Positions 21,815 to 58,249 of a stretch of DNA of 64,000 nucleotides are shown here, one piece after another. Every line of letters begins with the position of its first letter. The stretch's first letter is position 1. Location: positions 73,243 to 137,242 of the forward strand of contig JBAZKH010000001.1 in NCBI GenBank assembly GCA_041650935.1, read 5' to 3'. A program made the position numbers and the translations under genes. Below the pieces are notes generated by a model. The model worked only from the letters and a program-made list of their open reading frames with translations, was not told the DNA's origin and did no database searches. This DNA is from Candidatus Omnitrophota bacterium. GTDB lineage: Bacteria > Omnitrophota > Gorgyraeia > 2-01-FULL-45-10.

Positions 21815-23680
21815 ATGATCAAGAACGAGAATATAGTCTGCATATCGTCGATAGATTGGGACTTCATCTGGCAGGGGCACCAGGAGATAATGGATGCCTT
21901 TGCCAAGAACGGCAACAGGGTCCTTTTTATCGAAAATACAGGCGTCAGGTCGCCGGGTATCAAGGATATCCCGCGCTTACGGAAGAGGCTGGTAAGCTGG
22001 ATAAAGAGCGCCAAGGGTTTCAGGGAAGAACGGGAGAACCTTTTTGTATATTCCCCGCTTGTTCTGCCGTTTCCGTATTCCCGGCTGGCCCGGTTCATTA
22101 ATAAATATACACTCCTCAGATCCCTTAAGAGATGGCTTAAGGTCATGGGCTTTCGTGATCCCATTATCTGGACGTTCCTGCCTACGGGTACGGCCGTCGA
22201 TATAGCAGGTAATATAGACGGTAAATTGCTTATCTATTATTGCATAGCGGATTTCTATAAACTGGTCGACAATTCAGCGAAAGTCAAGAGGACGGAAGAC
22301 GAGTTGATAAAGAGATGCGATCTGGTATTTGCCCAGGGGGATCTGCTGAAAGAGAGATGCCGGCGCCTGAATAAGAATGTCCATAAATTCCCATTCGGGG
22401 TAAATATCGAGGCATTTGAAAGTTATGACCGGCTAAACGGTAAGCTGCCGAAAGAGCTGGAGGGGATAAGAGGACCCGTTGTCGGATATGTGGGAGGTCT
22501 CCACAGGCATGTAGACTTCGAGCTCATAAGGTTCATTTCAGATAAGCATCCTGATTGGTCTATTGTGATGATCGGGCCTGTGCAGGCGGATATATCCGAG
22601 ATCGATAAACGGAAGAATATCCTGCTTTTAGGCAAGAAAGATTTTAATGATCTGCCGGCATATATAAACAGGTTCGACGCCTGCATGATACCGTATATCA
22701 TCAATGACTATACCATGACGGTCTTCCCTACCAAGCTGAACGAATATCATGCCATGGGCAAGCCGGTCGTTTCTACGAGCTTGCCGGAGGTTATCGACTT
22801 TAACAAGAAGAATAACGCTCTCATAGCGGTAGCGGCGGCTAGGGAGGATTTTGACAGCAAGCTGGCGGCGGCGGTTGCCGACAAGAGCGGCGGACTTGCC
22901 GATATGCGGATAAAATCTGCTAAGAATAATAGCTGGACGGAACGTATCGAGGAGATGAGCCGTCTTATCCAATCGACTATGGAGAGGAAGGCGGTCAGTC
23001 CTCCGCACTGGCGGGAAAGTTTCCTGCAGTTATATAAGACCGCCAGGGTACGCATGATAAAGATCCTGGCTGCGGCTATAACCGTTTATGGTCTCATATT
23101 TTATACTCCTATTATCTGGTATGCCGCAAAACCGCTTTTGATTTCCCAGACACCGGTTAAAGCGGATTGCATAGTAGTTTACGGCGGCGGCGTGGGGGAA
23201 TCAGGGAAGGCCGGACAGGGGTATGAAGAGAGGGTACAGCGGGCTGTCGAGTTATACAAAAGCGAATACGCCGGCAAGATGATCTTTTTGTCGGGTTACG
23301 CGTATCTCTTCAAAGAGCCGCTCGTCATGAAGGCGCTGGCTATATCGCTAGGCGTGCCGGAAAAAGATATAATATTGGAAGATATGGCGAAGAATACGTT
23401 CGAGAACGTGGAATTCACCAGGCGTATAGTGCAAAAGCACGGATGGCGGCATATTCTTCTGGTAAGTTCGCCTTACCATATGGGCAGGGTCTCTTTAGTC
23501 TTCCGCAAGATCGCAGGAGATATCGATGTTACGTATACACCGATTGTGAACGGCCATTTTTATGCTCGCACACCCGGCAACCTGGGCTCGAGGTGGAAGA
23601 GGATAAATATAGAACAGATCCGCGGAATACTTCATGAATATATCGGGATTCTCTATTATTGGTTTAAGGGGTATATATAA
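21815..23680 (+). CDS. GT4 glycosyltransferase fused to C-terminal DUF218 (YdcF/ElyC/SanA-like) domain
   Basis: N-terminal ~400 aa is GT-B with KLNEYHAMGKPVVST. C-terminal ~200 aa carries DCIVVYGGGVG...LSGY...LLVSSPYHMGRV, a DUF218 signature. Confidence 0.65.
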   Translation: MIKNENIVCISSIDWDFIWQGHQEIMDAFAKNGNRVLFIENTGVRSPGIKDIPRLRKRLVSWIKSAKGFREERENLFVYSPLVLPFPYSRLARFINKYTLLRSLKRWLKVMGFRDPIIWTFLPTGTAVDIAGNIDGKLLIYYCIADFYKLVDNSAKVKRTEDELIKRCDLVFAQGDLLKERCRRLNKNVHKFPFGVNIEAFESYDRLNGKLPKELEGIRGPVVGYVGGLHRHVDFELIRFISDKHPDWSIVMIGPVQADISEIDKRKNILLLGKKDFNDLPAYINRFDACMIPYIINDYTMTVFPTKLNEYHAMGKPVVSTSLPEVIDFNKKNNALIAVAAAREDFDSKLAAAVADKSGGLADMRIKSAKNNSWTERIEEMSRLIQSTMERKAVSPPHWRESFLQLYKTARVRMIKILAAAITVYGLIFYTPIIWYAAKPLLISQTPVKADCIVVYGGGVGESGKAGQGYEERVQRAVELYKSEYAGKMIFLSGYAYLFKEPLVMKALAISLGVPEKDIILEDMAKNTFENVEFTRRIVQKHGWRHILLVSSPYHMGRVSLVFRKIAGDIDVTYTPIVNGHFYARTPGNLGSRWKRINIEQIRGILHEYIGILYYWFKGYI

Positions 23681-23687
23681 GTCAGGC

Positions 23688-23846
23688 TAAGGTAGTCCCT
23701 CGGTGCAGGACTTAGATTGTTGCACCTCGGGACGATTTGTCTAAAGTTAGATACAAATTAAGGTAGCCCCTCGCTGCCGGAGTTAGACAGTAGCAGCTCG
23801 GGACGATTTGTCAGAGTTAGATAATAACAAATCGGAGGTATGTATA
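23688..23846 (+). promoter_or_regulatory. Structured 5' leader: 2 tandem units of conserved RNA module A (bipartite hairpin) each followed by module B hairpin; terminal B hairpin abuts the SD
   Basis: Unit 1 is GTCCC-tc-GGTGCA-[ggacttagattgt]-TGCACC-tc-GGGAC. Unit 2 is GCCCC-tc-GCTGC-[cggagttagacagta]-GCAGC-tc-GGGAC, with compensatory inner-stem changes. Then GATTTGT-[cagagttagataata]-ACAAATC, then GGAGG, then GTG 23847. Confidence 0.6.
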
Positions 23847-37571: not shown

Positions 37572-37587
37572 ACAGGTAGAGTCAGTT

Positions 37588-37887
37588 TAAAGGTAGTCCC
37601 TCGGCGCGGGAGTGAGAGCGTTGCACCTCGGGATGATTTGCAGGAGTGAGATAAGGGCAAATCACGGTACAATTTGTCTAAAGTTAGATACAGATTAAGG
37701 TAGTCCCTCGGCGCGGGAGTTAGATTGTTGCGCCTCGGGATGATTTGCAAGAGTGAGATAAGGGCAAATCACGGGACGATTTGTCTAAAGTTAGATATAA
37801 ATTAAGGTAGTCCCTCGCTGCCGGAGTTAGACAGTGGCAGCTCGGGACGATTTGTCTAAAGTTAGATAATAACAAATCGGAGACATA
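37588..37887 (+). promoter_or_regulatory. Structured 5' leader: three tandem 107-nt units (module A + module B/B') ending at the SD of the GT2 gene
   Basis: GTCCC at 37596, 37703 and 37810, an exact 107-nt period. Inner stems GGCGCG/TGCACC (imperfect), GGCGC/GCGCC and GCTGCC/GGCAGC covary. Loops carry GGAGTTAGA. B' is GATTTGCA-[rgagtgagataaggg]-CAAATC. The final B is GATTTGT...ACAAATC, then GGAG, then ATG 37888. Confidence 0.6.
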
Positions 37888-50724: not shown

Positions 50725-52032
50725 ATGGCGAAAAAAGTAGCACCGAAAGAACTTATCCAACAGGATTTCCATAACCTGAAGACTCAGGAGAGGCTCTATA
50801 CCATTCCGAGAGTGGAGGATCTTGTCTTCATGCAGTCGATCGAAGGCAGGGCCCATAACGGCGCGGGTATCTTCAATAAGCACACCTATGTCAATACGAC
50901 CATGGAGGATATCGTCGGTGCGCTGGGCCGTTCCGCCAAGGTGGTAAAGGCCAAGCGCCAGGAGCTGATCGATGAGATAGTGGAGTATGTCGACAGCGTC
51001 TTTGCCGATGATCCGCGCGAGAGGCTTGTGACGCGGAACGGCCGTCCGCTTCTTGGGATCCCGCAGTTCAAAGAGAGGACGGTAAACTACCACGATATCT
51101 TAAAAGGGCTGTATCTCGGCGGGCTGAGGGACGATCCCGATATAAGGAAGAAGACGCAGGGGCTCTACAGCATAAATATAGGTTACGGCAAATGCTACAT
51201 GGTAAACACCAAGATAATGGAGGAGATGGCCCTCGACGGAGAGCAGTTGGCGCACCAGGAGAATGAGGACAGGATAAATTATTTCAAGTCCTGCGGGCTT
51301 ATAGTCGACGATGTAAAACCGAAACACAGCGCTTCGAAATATATAAAGTGGTTGTATATCCGCCATCACGTAGGCCCCGGCCAATCCGACGACGGCGCCA
51401 TCGTCGCAAGCGGCCTGATCTACAGCGTAGACGTTGCGCTCGGAGTCTTCCTATCGGACGCCATCGATACGCTCGAAAAGTACGTGAGCATCTACCGCGA
51501 CCAGGATAAGGAGCTCGCCCTCTATATTAAAGAGAAGTATCCGTTCCTCGATCTCGATGAGAAAGACGCCTATGAATTGGCATATCTGGCCGCCATACCG
51601 GGCGAGCGGGTGGATGAAATACCGGACAGCTCCTTAAGGTATCTGCTTGCCATAGACCAGGAGACCGGGCAATCTACCTTAGAGACGCACCTCAACTTTA
51701 TAGAGGGAAAGCCGTTTGCGCCGATCGCTATAAGTTATAAAAGGATAGCCATATCGCAGCTATACGATTTTATCAGGGAGAAGCTGAAGAGTATCAATAA
51801 AGAAGTTTTATTCAAGATACCCGAAGCCATAGTGAAAGAACTCGACTCCTCCGTTGCCAAAGTCATGCAAAGGAGATTTATAACGGTGAGCCCGCAGACG
51901 TCGTTGAAATCCGCGCTCGAAAAGGTTGAGGCGAGGAAAGGCGAACTGATAATAGTTAAGGATGAAAACGGAAATATTCTCGGCGTCGTAAACCCGAGCG
52001 ATTTTTTGGTATTCTTAAAAGGACGGAGCTAA
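50725..52032 (+). CDS. Hypothetical protein with C-terminal CBS-like domain
   Basis: 435 aa with no catalytic motifs recognised. The C-terminal FITVSPQTSLKSALEKV...IIVKDENGNILGVVNPSDFL looks like a single CBS module. Confidence 0.45.
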   Translation: MAKKVAPKELIQQDFHNLKTQERLYTIPRVEDLVFMQSIEGRAHNGAGIFNKHTYVNTTMEDIVGALGRSAKVVKAKRQELIDEIVEYVDSVFADDPRERLVTRNGRPLLGIPQFKERTVNYHDILKGLYLGGLRDDPDIRKKTQGLYSINIGYGKCYMVNTKIMEEMALDGEQLAHQENEDRINYFKSCGLIVDDVKPKHSASKYIKWLYIRHHVGPGQSDDGAIVASGLIYSVDVALGVFLSDAIDTLEKYVSIYRDQDKELALYIKEKYPFLDLDEKDAYELAYLAAIPGERVDEIPDSSLRYLLAIDQETGQSTLETHLNFIEGKPFAPIAISYKRIAISQLYDFIREKLKSINKEVLFKIPEAIVKELDSSVAKVMQRRFITVSPQTSLKSALEKVEARKGELIIVKDENGNILGVVNPSDFLVFLKGRS

Positions 52033-52039
52033 ATTCGAA

Positions 52040-52165
52040 ATTCTAAATCCGAAATACGAAACAAGTTCTAATTTTCCAAATCCTAATGCTCCAAACTTAT
52101 TTATTTTTGAATTTTGAATATTCTGATTTTGGATTTGTTTCGAATTTCAATATTCGGATTTAGGA
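52040..52165. repeat. AT-rich inverted-repeat element, second member of the same family
   Basis: TAAATCCGAAATACGAAACAA ... TTGTTTCGAATTTCAATATTCGGATTTA with ~60 nt between the arms. It shares AAATCCGAA, CGAAACAA and TTTC(A/G)ATATTCG with the 34.7-kb element. Confidence 0.45.
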
Positions 52166-52193
52166 GTTAAAGTCAATAATATATGAGAAAAAT

Positions 52194-53231
52194 ATGCCTG
52201 AGCTAAGACGCGATCCTGTAATCGGAAGATGGGTCATAATATCTACGGAGAGGGCGCGGAGGCCGGACCAGTTTGTTTCGGCGGCCGCCGAAAAAGAAGA
52301 GTTCCCGGCGGGCGGGAAGTGCCCGTTCTGTGAAGGCAATGAGGGTCTTACCGCTCCCGAGATCACCGCTGTCAGGCATCACGGCAGCCGGCCGAATAGT
52401 CCGGGATGGGAAATCCGCGTGATCCCCAGCATATCGCCGCTTTTGCAGATCGAAGGTTCTTTGGACCGCCATGGCCACGGTATGTATGATCTCATGAATG
52501 CCCGCGGCGCGCATGAGATAGTCATAGAATCGCCCCGGCATCTCAAGGAGTCCGAACTTCCGAAAGAGCAGATGGTCAAAGCCGTCAATGTTATCCTCGA
52601 CAGGATACACGACCTCGAGAAAGACAGGGACATAAAATATGTGCTGATCTTTAAAAATTGCGGCAAAGCCGCGGGCAGCGGCCGCATACAGCACGCAAGG
52701 ACGCAGATCATCGGGACACCCGTCAACCTGAAAAGGGTCAAGGAAGAGCTTGCGGGCGCAAAGGCGTATTATGATTACAAAGACAGGTGCATATTTTGCG
52801 ATATGCTTAAGCAGGAGATGCAGTCCGGCAAGCGCGTGATAGCGGAATCCAAACATTTTGTGGCGCTGGCCGCTTTCGCGTCGCGTTTTCCTTTCGAGAC
52901 CTGGATAATGCCTAAAGAGCATTCCTGCGATTTCTATAAGATCGATAGGACCAGGATACCGGACTTTGCCGAGATCATGGCGACGATATTTGCGAAGATG
53001 CGCAAGGTCCTGGGCGATTTCCCGTTCAATTTTGTACTGCATACGGCTCCTTTCAGGAGAGATTTAGGAAAACGCGGGTATTGGGAGACGATAGAATGCG
53101 ATTATCACTGGCACTTCGAGATACTCCCGATACTTACCCGCGTCGCCGGGTTCGAATGGGGCAGCGGGTTCTACATAAACCCGCTCTTACCGGAGGATGC
53201 GTGTAATTCCGTGAGAGAGGCAAAGATTTAA
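52194..53231 (+). CDS. Galactose-1-phosphate uridylyltransferase-like protein (HIT superfamily), active-site variant
   Basis: GalT zinc knuckle CPFCEGNE is present. The HPH nucleophile motif is replaced by HARTQ. Confidence 0.7.
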   Translation: MPELRRDPVIGRWVIISTERARRPDQFVSAAAEKEEFPAGGKCPFCEGNEGLTAPEITAVRHHGSRPNSPGWEIRVIPSISPLLQIEGSLDRHGHGMYDLMNARGAHEIVIESPRHLKESELPKEQMVKAVNVILDRIHDLEKDRDIKYVLIFKNCGKAAGSGRIQHARTQIIGTPVNLKRVKEELAGAKAYYDYKDRCIFCDMLKQEMQSGKRVIAESKHFVALAAFASRFPFETWIMPKEHSCDFYKIDRTRIPDFAEIMATIFAKMRKVLGDFPFNFVLHTAPFRRDLGKRGYWETIECDYHWHFEILPILTRVAGFEWGSGFYINPLLPEDACNSVREAKI

Positions 53232-53233
53232 TT

Positions 53234-54238
53234 ATGAACGAGCTTAGGCGCGATCCGATAACCGCAAGGTGGATCATCGTTCCGCTGGATAAGTCGGCGG
53301 ACGTCTCCGACTTTATTTCGGAACCGCACCTGAAGACTAAGGACTCCTGCCCGTTCTGCTACGGCGGCGAGACGATGACGCCGCCGGAGATAGTCGCGCA
53401 CCGGAAAAGCGGCAGTCCCAATACCCCGAATTGGACCGTGCGGGTTGTGCCGAACAAATTCCCCGCCCTTCGCATAGAGGGAGAGCTCGAGAGGCAGGGT
53501 GTCGGTATGTTCGATATGATGAACGGCGTCGGGGCGCATGAAGTCATAGTAGATACGCCGGATCACTTCAGGGATATGGCGGACTTGAGCCATGCGGAGA
53601 CCGAAGAGGTCATCTGGGCTTACAGGGCCAGGTCGCTCGACCTGAGGCGGGATAGCCGCTTCAAGTATATCCTTATATTCAAGAACTACGGACGCTCGGC
53701 CGGCGCATCTTTGGAGCATCCGCACAGCCAGCTCATAGCGCTGCCCATCGTTCCCAAGAGGGTCCACGAAGAGATGGAAGGCGCCGCAAAGTACTACGAT
53801 TATAAGGAGAGATGCGTATTCTGCGATATAGTGCGGGAAGAACTGGAAGAGACGGACAGGATAATATATAATGATGAAAAGTTCGTGGCCTTCTGTCCTT
53901 ATGTTTCGCGTTTTGCCTACGAGATATGGATATTGCCGAAAAAGCACGCGTCCGATTTTGCCAATATCGACAGGGACCATGTTTCGTCGTTTGCGCGGGC
54001 ACTCCGGGATTCCCTGGCAAAATTAAAAGGACTCTTGAAAGATCCGTCATATAATTTTATAATACATACGTCGCCGATCAATGGCCATGAGCGCGAGGAT
54101 TACCACTGGCACGTAGAGATAATGCCGAAGCTTTCGAAGGTGGCCGGCTTCGAATGGGGAAGCGGTTTTTACGTCAATCCGGTTTTACCCGACATCGCGG
54201 CGCGGAATTTGTTTGGTGTAAAAGTTCCGGAGAAATAA
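53234..54238 (+). CDS. galT: Galactose-1-phosphate uridylyltransferase
   Basis: CPFCYGGE and canonical EHPHSQLIALP. Confidence 0.75.
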   Translation: MNELRRDPITARWIIVPLDKSADVSDFISEPHLKTKDSCPFCYGGETMTPPEIVAHRKSGSPNTPNWTVRVVPNKFPALRIEGELERQGVGMFDMMNGVGAHEVIVDTPDHFRDMADLSHAETEEVIWAYRARSLDLRRDSRFKYILIFKNYGRSAGASLEHPHSQLIALPIVPKRVHEEMEGAAKYYDYKERCVFCDIVREELEETDRIIYNDEKFVAFCPYVSRFAYEIWILPKKHASDFANIDRDHVSSFARALRDSLAKLKGLLKDPSYNFIIHTSPINGHEREDYHWHVEIMPKLSKVAGFEWGSGFYVNPVLPDIAARNLFGVKVPEK

Positions 54239-54373: not shown

Positions 54374-55444
<1,071 letters not shown>

Positions 55445-58001: not shown

Positions 58002-58160
58002 ATGGATAAGTATAAGTGTTTAGTTTGTGGATATATTTACGATCCGGCAAAAGGGGATCCGGATAACGGTGTGCCGGCAGGGACGAGTTTTGACAAGATA
58101 CCCGATGACTGGGTATGCCCGGAGTGCGGCGCTCCGAAGAGTGAGTTCGAAAAAGTGTGA
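58002..58160 (+). CDS. Rubredoxin
   Basis: 52 aa with CLVCGYIY...[10 protein letters not shown], the two CxxCG knuckles. Below the ORF-track length cutoff. RBS AGAGGAG. Confidence 0.8.
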
Positions 58161-58249
58161 AGCGGTCCCTCGGCGCGGCCTATAATTAGATAGTAGCCTT
58201 GCCCGGGACGGTTTGTAGAAGTAAAACTACAACAAATCGGAGGTAAAAA
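58161..58249 (+). promoter_or_regulatory. Divergent single copy of the same leader module upstream of porD
   Basis: GGTCCC-tc-GGCGCGG...CCTTGCC-c-GGGAC (degenerate inner stem), then GTTTGTAG...CTACAACAAATC, then GGAGG, then ATG 58250. It shares the GTCCCTCGG and ACAAATCGGAGG ends with the other copies. Confidence 0.45.

Follow-up and report, generated by a model that had tools for sequence, protein, structure and literature searches.

Two tandem GalT-like genes

The window analysed here is a stretch of 64,000 nucleotides (nt) from a Candidatus Omnitrophota bacterium (assembly GCA_041650935.1, contig JBAZKH010000001.1, positions 73,243 to 137,242 of the forward strand). Two open reading frames (ORFs) lie in tandem on its plus strand, 52194-53231 (copy 1, 345 amino acids, aa) and 53234-54238 (copy 2, 334 aa). 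They are separated by 2 nt and encode proteins related to galactose-1-phosphate uridylyltransferase (GalT) which share 42% identity over their full length (BLASTP E value 6e-109). The nucleophilic His of the family is present in copy 2 and replaced by Arg in copy 1, and the Arg pair of the N-terminal arm is split in the opposite way, being present in copy 1 (R20, R23) and absent in copy 2 (K20, D23). The original prediction for this stretch had described full-length tandem GalT-like paralogues with an N-terminal CPFC zinc knuckle, of which copy 1 had changed HPH to HAR, and this description was borne out by the ORFs, by Pfam and by HMMER alignments. The features of the two genes are as follows.

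52194-53231, plus strand: copy 1, a GalT-branch HIT protein without the nucleophile, proposed to be a non-catalytic subunit giving the arm and the sugar loop in trans (ORF, Pfam and NCBIfam, match to 1Z84, AlphaFold2 (AF2) model, Foldseek, ratio of non-synonymous to synonymous substitution rates (dN/dS))
52248-52265, plus strand: N-terminal arm ERARRP of copy 1, kept (R20, R22 and R23 equal R28, K30 and R31 of E. coli GalT in the alignment to 1HXQ)
52428-52445, plus strand: SISPLL of copy 1, in place of the invariant nucleotide-site motif NKFPAL (its Asn is N77 in E. coli and N97 in human)
52677-52712, plus strand: HIT loop of copy 1, S-G-R-I-Q-H-A-R-T-Q-I-I
53145-53171, plus strand: AGFEWGSGF loop of copy 1, kept (region of E. 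coli Y316/E317 and human Tyr339/Glu340; conserved in 26/26)
53229-53236, plus strand: TAA-TT-ATG junction, with a GAGG-type ribosome-binding sequence within the end of copy 1
53234-54238, plus strand: copy 2, the putative catalytic subunit, with intact HIT motif and degenerate arm (ORF, match to 1Z84, TIGR00209 score)
53288-53305, plus strand: degenerate arm DKSADV of copy 2, replacing ER-x-[KR]-R-P
53711-53737, plus strand: canonical LEHPHSQLI of copy 2, with the zinc ligand His162, the nucleophile His164 (codon CAC, 53723-53725) and Gln166

Both proteins carry CPFC and matched the Pfam families GalP_UDP_transf and GalP_UDP_tr_C. Two tandem HIT-like half-barrels per chain were recognised in both copies by Pfam, and in copy 1 also by Foldseek with the AF2 model (predicted local distance difference test 91.5, predicted template modelling (TM) score 0.89). 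The best match of both copies in the Protein Data Bank (PDB) was the ADP-glucose phosphorylase At5g18200 (1Z84), with E values of 1.7e-61 for copy 1 and 1.4e-64 for copy 2, well ahead of true GalTs. Foldseek searches with the copy-1 model also returned 2H39 and 1Z84 at the top (TM scores 0.82 and 0.91), followed by archaeal, E. coli and human GalT; the TM score against the E. coli enzyme was 0.79-0.82. The cut-off of TIGR00209 (102.1 bits) was passed by copy 2 with 119 bits, while copy 1 stayed below it with 99.9 bits, and both were far below the cut-off of PRK11720 (448 bits), with 108.5 bits for copy 1 and 133 bits for copy 2. As At5g18200 is the closest solved relative, as copy 1 falls below TIGR00209 and as both copies fall below PRK11720, the label 'galT', which the original prediction had used, is probably a misnomer; more broadly, both genes are members of the GalT branch within the HIT superfamily.

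At5g18200 (1Z84, 2H39) shares with the pair the CPFC knuckle, the second Cys/His metal site and the GFE loop, at about 34% identity in the Foldseek alignment. Its HxHxQ motif is matched by copy 2 and its ERAKRP arm by copy 1. It differs in being a homodimer with two equivalent sites, in which each subunit carries both His186 and the arm (R41, K43, R44), whereas these elements are divided between two genes in the window. The class I enzymes, E. coli GalT and human GALT, have in common with the pair the HIT fold of two half-barrels; their ping-pong mechanism via the second His of HxHxQ and the completion of their sites by the neighbouring chain would also apply to the pair. They are, however, only about 20-23% identical to the pair (Foldseek alignments), and the relatives of the pair are linked to glycogen genes, with no galK, galE or other Leloir-pathway genes found near the pair itself.

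Residues lost and kept in the two copies

In copy 1 the segment IQHARTQII is encoded at 52686-52712. Its Arg169 (codon AGG, 52698-52700) fell in HMMER alignments on the nucleophile His186 of At5g18200 (1Z84 and 2H39, the latter being the H186G mutant) and on His166 of E. coli GalT (1HXQ), and the flanking Q-I-I-x-x-P block aligned without gaps. The loss of the nucleophile would be in doubt if another His of copy 1 could be aligned to this position, as the original prediction had pointed out. No such His was found, since alignments to 1Z84/2H39 and to 1HXQ all kept Arg169 there. The only His of the motif, His167, aligned with the zinc-ligand His, and the residue inserted at position 164, although His in a part of the orthologues, is Arg in the window; no other His can therefore fill the nucleophile position, and this candidate was ruled out. 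Copy 1 thus does not carry the motif H-x-H-x-Q with its second His as acceptor, but reads H167-A-R169-T-Q171. Other residues of the loop have changed as well: AS is replaced by SG (GG in most orthologues), R164 is inserted and Glu is replaced by Gln or Lys at position 166, while the zinc ligand His167 and Gln171 are retained.

Further losses concern the nucleotide site. The Asn of this site, for which a role has been described in human GALT (Asn97/Asp98; PMC5081055), was present in 79/79 canonical proteins and was replaced in copy-1 proteins by Ser (23) or Tyr (4), together with changes of Lys to Ile and of Ala to Leu or Phe. In the copy 1 of the window the ribose-site Asn is replaced by Ser79, and the alpha-phosphate Ser has also been lost. 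The arm, on the other hand, was kept among copy-1 orthologues, with R20 in 25 of 26 and R23 in 26 of 26 sequences and Arg at both positions in 114 of about 116 clusters. Also conserved were the zinc site (C43, C46, H116, H167) and the second metal site (C199, C202, H243, H305/H307), the equivalents of which are conserved in copy 2 as judged from its sequence, and Asn155 is likewise kept in copy 1.

H-x-R-x-Q was observed in all but six of the best 120 homologues of copy 1 (59-100% identity), the exceptions having His in four cases and Ile in two. In a wider set, Arg occupied the nucleophile position in 111 of about 116 copy-1-type clusters, showing that the HAR variant is a conserved property of the orthologues. 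Compared with orthologues, dN/dS was 0.06-0.09 for copy 1 and 0.05-0.12 for copy 2 where dS was not saturated, with similar dN values for both; mean pairwise divergence across 22 genomes was equal for the two copies (0.395 for copy 1 and 0.384 for copy 2). With its Arg conserved and purifying selection acting on it, copy 1 is a functional gene. That copy 1 might be a decaying pseudogene, or its Arg an error of sequencing or assembly, is suggested by nothing except the loss of the catalytic His itself. Such an explanation was refuted by the data on conservation and selection and retains practically no probability: the ORF is intact, Arg is common to more than 100 orthologue clusters and the protein gives a confidently folded model. 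A single-base error would not suffice, as AGG differs from CAC in all three bases, and the identical protein occurs on independent contigs, copy 1 being 100% identical to a protein of a Candidatus Omnitrophota metagenome-assembled genome.

Copy 2 has an intact H-x-H-x-Q motif (H162-P-H164-S-Q166) and retains the zinc knuckle, the ribose-site Asn74, Ser159, His162, His164 and Gln166; in the window, its AGFEW sugar loop is still intact as well. The original prediction had regarded this copy as canonical, which holds for HPHSQ but not for the arm, where K20, A22 and D23 are found in place of the R, K/R and R present in 44-45 of 45 single-copy relatives. Among the copy-2 orthologues Arg was found at position 23 in 0 of 34, and position 22 was Pro, Val, Ala or Leu. 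Lacking the invariant residues of the arm, copy 2 is probably not self-sufficient as an enzyme.

A locus scan in which each species was represented by one genome gave 80 loci. Of these, 35, almost all of them labelled Omnitrophota, had a copy-1-type gene followed by a copy-2-type gene, always in this order, and the armless copy-2-type proteins never occurred without copy 1 (34 loci). The junction between the two genes measured between -14 and +5 nt in 21 of 32 orthologous pairs. A single canonical gene was found in other phyla, including Elusimicrobia, Nitrospirota, Acidobacteriota, Zixibacteria and Margulisbacteria, and in these single-copy relatives the arm E-R-x-[KR]-R-P was invariant (R20 in 45/45 and R23 in 44/45), with the nucleophile His present in 45/45. 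About 230 further clusters fell into three classes, having His and arm (78), His without arm (about 36) or arm without His (about 112).

A neighbour-joining tree separated a single copy-1 clade from a single copy-2 clade, and the branching order within the two matched. The copy-1 clade was marked by the one-residue insertion, by the change of AGAS to AGGG before the HIT motif and by the changes of Asn to Ser and of Lys to Ile in P-N-K-F-P-A-L. Arg was found at the nucleophile position in 27 of the 36 sequences of this clade, and a nested subclade of nine sequences showed H-[QLE]-H-[LI]-Q. The distance matrices of copy 1 and copy 2 were correlated with r = 0.76, compared with 0.52 and 0.51 for the correlations with the neighbouring GAPDH (partial r = 0.68), a co-variation which gives weak support to the pairing.

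Three proteins of about 597 aa (P0121, P0271 and P0272), with a mutual identity of 52-56%, are in-frame fusions of a copy-1-like and a copy-2-like part. Two of the three could be placed on contigs, and both were found in the order tyrS-[fusion]-gap-pgk-tpi-secG. In the N-terminal half of the fusions CPFC and the entire HIT motif are gone, E19-R20-A21-K22-R23-P24 and AGFEWGTG are invariant, and the second metal site is kept. The catalytic C-terminal half starts at CPFC and lacks the arm completely. Since no self-sufficient relative varies in the arm, the dead half would have to supply it to the catalytic half.

A comparable erosion was observed in separate copy-1 orthologues lying in the synteny priA-fmt-[copy 1]-[copy 2]-gap. 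In one of them (P0171, locus L092) the motif is eroded to HSRSH, and in another (P0223, locus L091) the motif is deleted and CPFC is lost; both retain TERARRP and the GFE loop. In the same two lineages the GFE loop of copy 2 has drifted (GIE, EFD), as would be expected if the site that it served is no longer used. Locus L091 (4001-6020), from a divergent member of the Omnitrophota, has lost CPFC in both partners (ISFT in copy 1 and SPFI in copy 2) and also most of the second Cys pair, so that the structural zinc sites appear to be dispensable there. A protein of 871 aa (P0168) contains two complete GalT-like units in one chain, in both of which HxHxQ is intact (HAHSQ at 314 and HPHSQ at 702), and appears to be a covalent dimer that has retained both sites.

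These distant orthologues and fusions also bear on the direct-displacement chemistry which the original prediction had considered for copy 1. Copy 1 would then be an independent enzyme of a phosphorylase-like or nucleotidyltransferase-like type working by single displacement, with Arg169 stabilising the transition state. The presence of Arg169 in 27/27 locus-derived sequences and in the 111 of about 116 clusters, the conserved remodelling of the loop, the retention of both zinc sites, Asn155 and Gln171 in copy 1 and the strong purifying selection would be consistent with such an enzyme. However, copy 1 lacks the ribose-site Asn and the alpha-phosphate Ser too, His or Ile occurs at position 169 in close orthologues, and in the distant orthologues of the same synteny as well as in the fusions the entire site has decayed or been removed, so that just the putative trans-acting parts are left. 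The loss of the arm in copy 2 would be left unexplained, and literature searches found no HIT enzyme with such chemistry. Single displacement in copy 1 is thus very unlikely.

A putative heterodimer with one composite site

UDP-glucose is contacted by Arg28 and Arg31 in E. coli GalT; in human GALT, Arg48, the counterpart of E. coli Arg28, has Gln188 of the opposite chain close by, and the hexose pocket is built from Lys334-Gln346 of the other chain (PMC5081055). The Arg pair of the arm is thus reported to reach the substrate phosphates from the opposite chain. Class I GalTs and At5g18200 are homodimers with inter-subunit active sites that need the neighbouring subunit (2026 preprint on the class II GalT BlGalT2). 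By analogy with the trans role described in these two sources, the AGFEWGSGF loop of copy 1 might bind the hexose in the site of its partner.

As each active site of dimers of the class I GalT type is built by both chains, the duplicated genes of the window may have degenerated in a complementary way. With the His lost from copy 1 and the arm lost from copy 2, only a copy 1:copy 2 heterodimer would assemble one full site. On the observed pattern of residues, its conservation, the synteny, the fusions and the selection on both genes we base the reading that copy 1 and copy 2 form an obligate heterodimer with a single catalytic site, to which we assign a probability of roughly two in three (0.68). 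The pair would represent the two subunits of a nucleoside diphosphate (NDP)-hexose:phosphate (or hexose-1-phosphate) nucleotidyltransferase of the At5g18200/class I GalT type. Copy 2 would contribute the cis elements Asn74, Ser159, His162, His164 and Gln166, and copy 1 would donate the arm with R20, R22 and R23 and the C-terminal AGFEW loop in trans to the site of copy 2. Normal ping-pong catalysis would proceed through a nucleotidyl-His164 intermediate at this one composite site, while the second site, made up of the altered cis residues of copy 1 and the armless N-terminus of copy 2, would be catalytically dead. The physical association of the two proteins, the action of the arm in trans and the substrate are what we infer from the sequences.

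As expected of a pseudoenzyme partner, copy 1 has lost its own site, is under selection and keeps the residues of the arm and of the AGFEW loop that would be donated, even in decayed orthologues and fusions. Of the options in the original prediction, the inactive partner is thus the best supported: copy 1 would serve copy 2 as a non-catalytic subunit, and it is not a decaying gene. The heterodimer model predicts that R20 and R23 of copy 1 are essential in trans and that Arg169 is dispensable for catalysis. The TAA-TT-ATG junction, with its GAGG-type sequence, suggests that translation of the two genes is coupled.

It might also be that the two proteins act separately, with copy 2 as a weakened but functional homodimer and copy 1 as a non-catalytic homodimer that senses or carries a nucleotide sugar or sugar phosphate. 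Copy 1 retains the fold, both zinc sites and a conserved basic pocket, position 20 of copy 2 is often Lys, and the GalT-like proteins P0126, P0130 and P0141 (loci L084-L088) lack the nucleophile His and have no adjacent canonical partner, all of which would be compatible with separate action. These stand-alone proteins are, however, also without the arm arginines and, having lost both His and arm, belong to a different class from copy 1. Moreover, each of the 34 loci with the armless copy-2 type also had copy 1, the order of the genes and their close spacing have been preserved, the two parts occur joined in a conserved fusion whose catalytic half is armless, and the losses complement each other exactly. 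Separate action is therefore unlikely. The view that all His-less GalT-like proteins are tandem partners was likewise rejected, as P0126, P0130 and P0141 stand alone and are armless. Their contexts comprise a type III pantothenate kinase with a universal stress protein, a baeRF-family protein and an acetate kinase.

Several observations weigh against the heterodimer. Position 20 of copy 2 is still Lys or Arg in 26 of 34 orthologues, i.e. the arm is incompletely neutralised. In the nested subclade of nine genes with His, the activity of the copy-1 site might have been retained. The occurrence of His-less GalT-like proteins alone in unrelated contexts makes partner-independent roles possible. 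That the arm acts in trans is argued from the structure of the fusions and from a statement in one paper that is itself backed in part by a homology model. As regards the putative substrate, the glycogen synthase gene glgA, glgC and genes for glycoside hydrolases of family 57 (GH57) were sought in the 64-kb window and none was found, with just one weak glycosyltransferase (GT) match. Finally, Arg169, Ser79 and the GG-plus-insertion are strictly conserved in the clade of the window, yet a merely dead site should drift, which indicates that the second site may have a further function.

In this clade the second site has Ser79, Gly162/163, a basic insertion, Gln or Lys at position 166 (Glu in canonical proteins) and Arg169, amounting to a gain of net positive charge in cis at the very place where the arm of copy 2 no longer provides it. 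We consider it a tentative, rather doubtful possibility that the second site of the heterodimer has been remodelled as a conserved basic pocket formed by R164 or His, Gln/Lys166 and Arg169, which would substitute for the charges of the copy-2 arm, bind a phosphorylated metabolite and control catalysis allosterically. Such a pocket would be closed by the AGFEW loop of copy 2, and its ligand might be phosphate, a sugar phosphate or an NDP-sugar. If this were true, the turnover of NDP-glucose and glycogen would respond to the state of glycolysis, in keeping with the gap-pgk-tpi operon and the neighbouring CBS-motif gene.

Pairs of an active and a dead paralogue are found in other enzymes. In GlgC/GlgD of Firmicutes and in the small and large subunits of plant ADP-glucose pyrophosphorylase, an NDP-glucose enzyme has been duplicated and one paralogue is a non-catalytic partner or regulator. 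These proteins combine a nucleotidyltransferase fold with a left-handed beta-helix, form heterotetramers and act in glycogen or starch synthesis, and the bacterial genes are adjacent. They resemble the pair in that a dead paralogue partners an active one in what is probably the same pathway, but differ in their unrelated fold and in that their catalytic subunit is largely self-sufficient, while both subunits appear to miss something essential here. In trypanosomatids, S-adenosylmethionine decarboxylase (AdoMetDC) with its prozyme and deoxyhypusine synthase each consist of a dead paralogue that heterodimerises with an active one and is needed for full activity, with active sites at the interface. 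They differ from the pair in having other folds and in belonging to eukaryotic parasites, and to our knowledge neither gene fusions nor a graded series of decay has been described for them.

Nothing relevant came up when the literature was searched for tandem or inactive GalT paralogues, for a HIT heterodimer and for a link between galT and glgA. If confirmed, the pair would be the first heterodimer among the GalT-branch HIT enzymes to be found in the searches made. It would also be a record of the change from a homodimer with shared sites to an obligate heterodimer by complementary loss, of which related genomes still contain intermediate, advanced and fused stages.

Glycogen genes and neighbouring features

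A single-copy At5g18200-like gene was found directly upstream of a family 5 GT (GT5) glycogen synthase gene, glgA, in 32 loci from many phyla (loci L033-L080), often with genes for GH57 enzymes and sometimes with glgC nearby. Natural fusions of the At5g18200-like protein to GT5 (P0167) and to GH57 (P0198, P0232) could also be observed, and glgA is still adjacent in the subclade with a His-retaining copy 1. Because At5g18200 is the closest solved relative and because the single-copy relatives are linked to glgA, the substrate of the pair is likely to be ADP-glucose/glucose-1-phosphate. The reaction would most likely be a reversible nucleotidyl transfer between NDP-glucose, probably ADP-glucose, and phosphate or hexose-1-phosphate. 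The same linkage suggests that the bacterial At5g18200-like family has an uncharacterised role in glycogen metabolism. This large family is routinely annotated as galactose-1-phosphate uridylyltransferase, probably wrongly.

The context given in the original prediction, with fmt, a hypothetical protein, gap and an AT-rich inverted-repeat region, proved to be real. The features flanking the pair are the following.

50725-52032, plus strand: upstream neighbour of 435 aa, with a helical N-terminal domain of about 370 aa and a single C-terminal CBS motif
52033-52193, no strand assigned: intergenic region 5' of copy 1, 161 nt, 25% GC (window about 51%), with imperfect inverted repeats
54392-55444, plus strand: gap (GAPDH), the conserved downstream neighbour

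The 435-aa CBS protein is kept at 73-93% in more than 100 clusters of Omnitrophota. Its position immediately 5' of the pair is confined to the subclade of the window, and it is a possible functional partner of the pair. For its N-terminal domain no match was obtained in Pfam, NCBIfam, PDB sequences or Foldseek. Downstream, many loci of Omnitrophota have gap-pgk-tpi next to the pair or the fusion.

The arms of the imperfect inverted repeat upstream of copy 1 lie at 52031-52053 and 52138-52168. When the region 52033-52193 was folded as RNA, its folding was no better than that of shuffled sequence (z = -1.06), and no Rfam match was obtained, so that a structured RNA in the AT-rich inverted repeat is unsupported. 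Promoter and terminator scans of the region upstream of copy 1 were uninformative. The region is a probable promoter or leader region of copy 1.

An Rfam scan of the whole window gave no family at the gathering threshold. Dispersed repeats of one family, about 107 nt long and sharing the core GGTAGTCCCTCGG...CCTCGGGAYGATTTG, were found in the window at 23674-23840, 37575-37885 and 58144-58245. Three head-to-tail units of this repeat lie at 37590-37877, and one copy is situated just after the ribonucleotide reductase gene.

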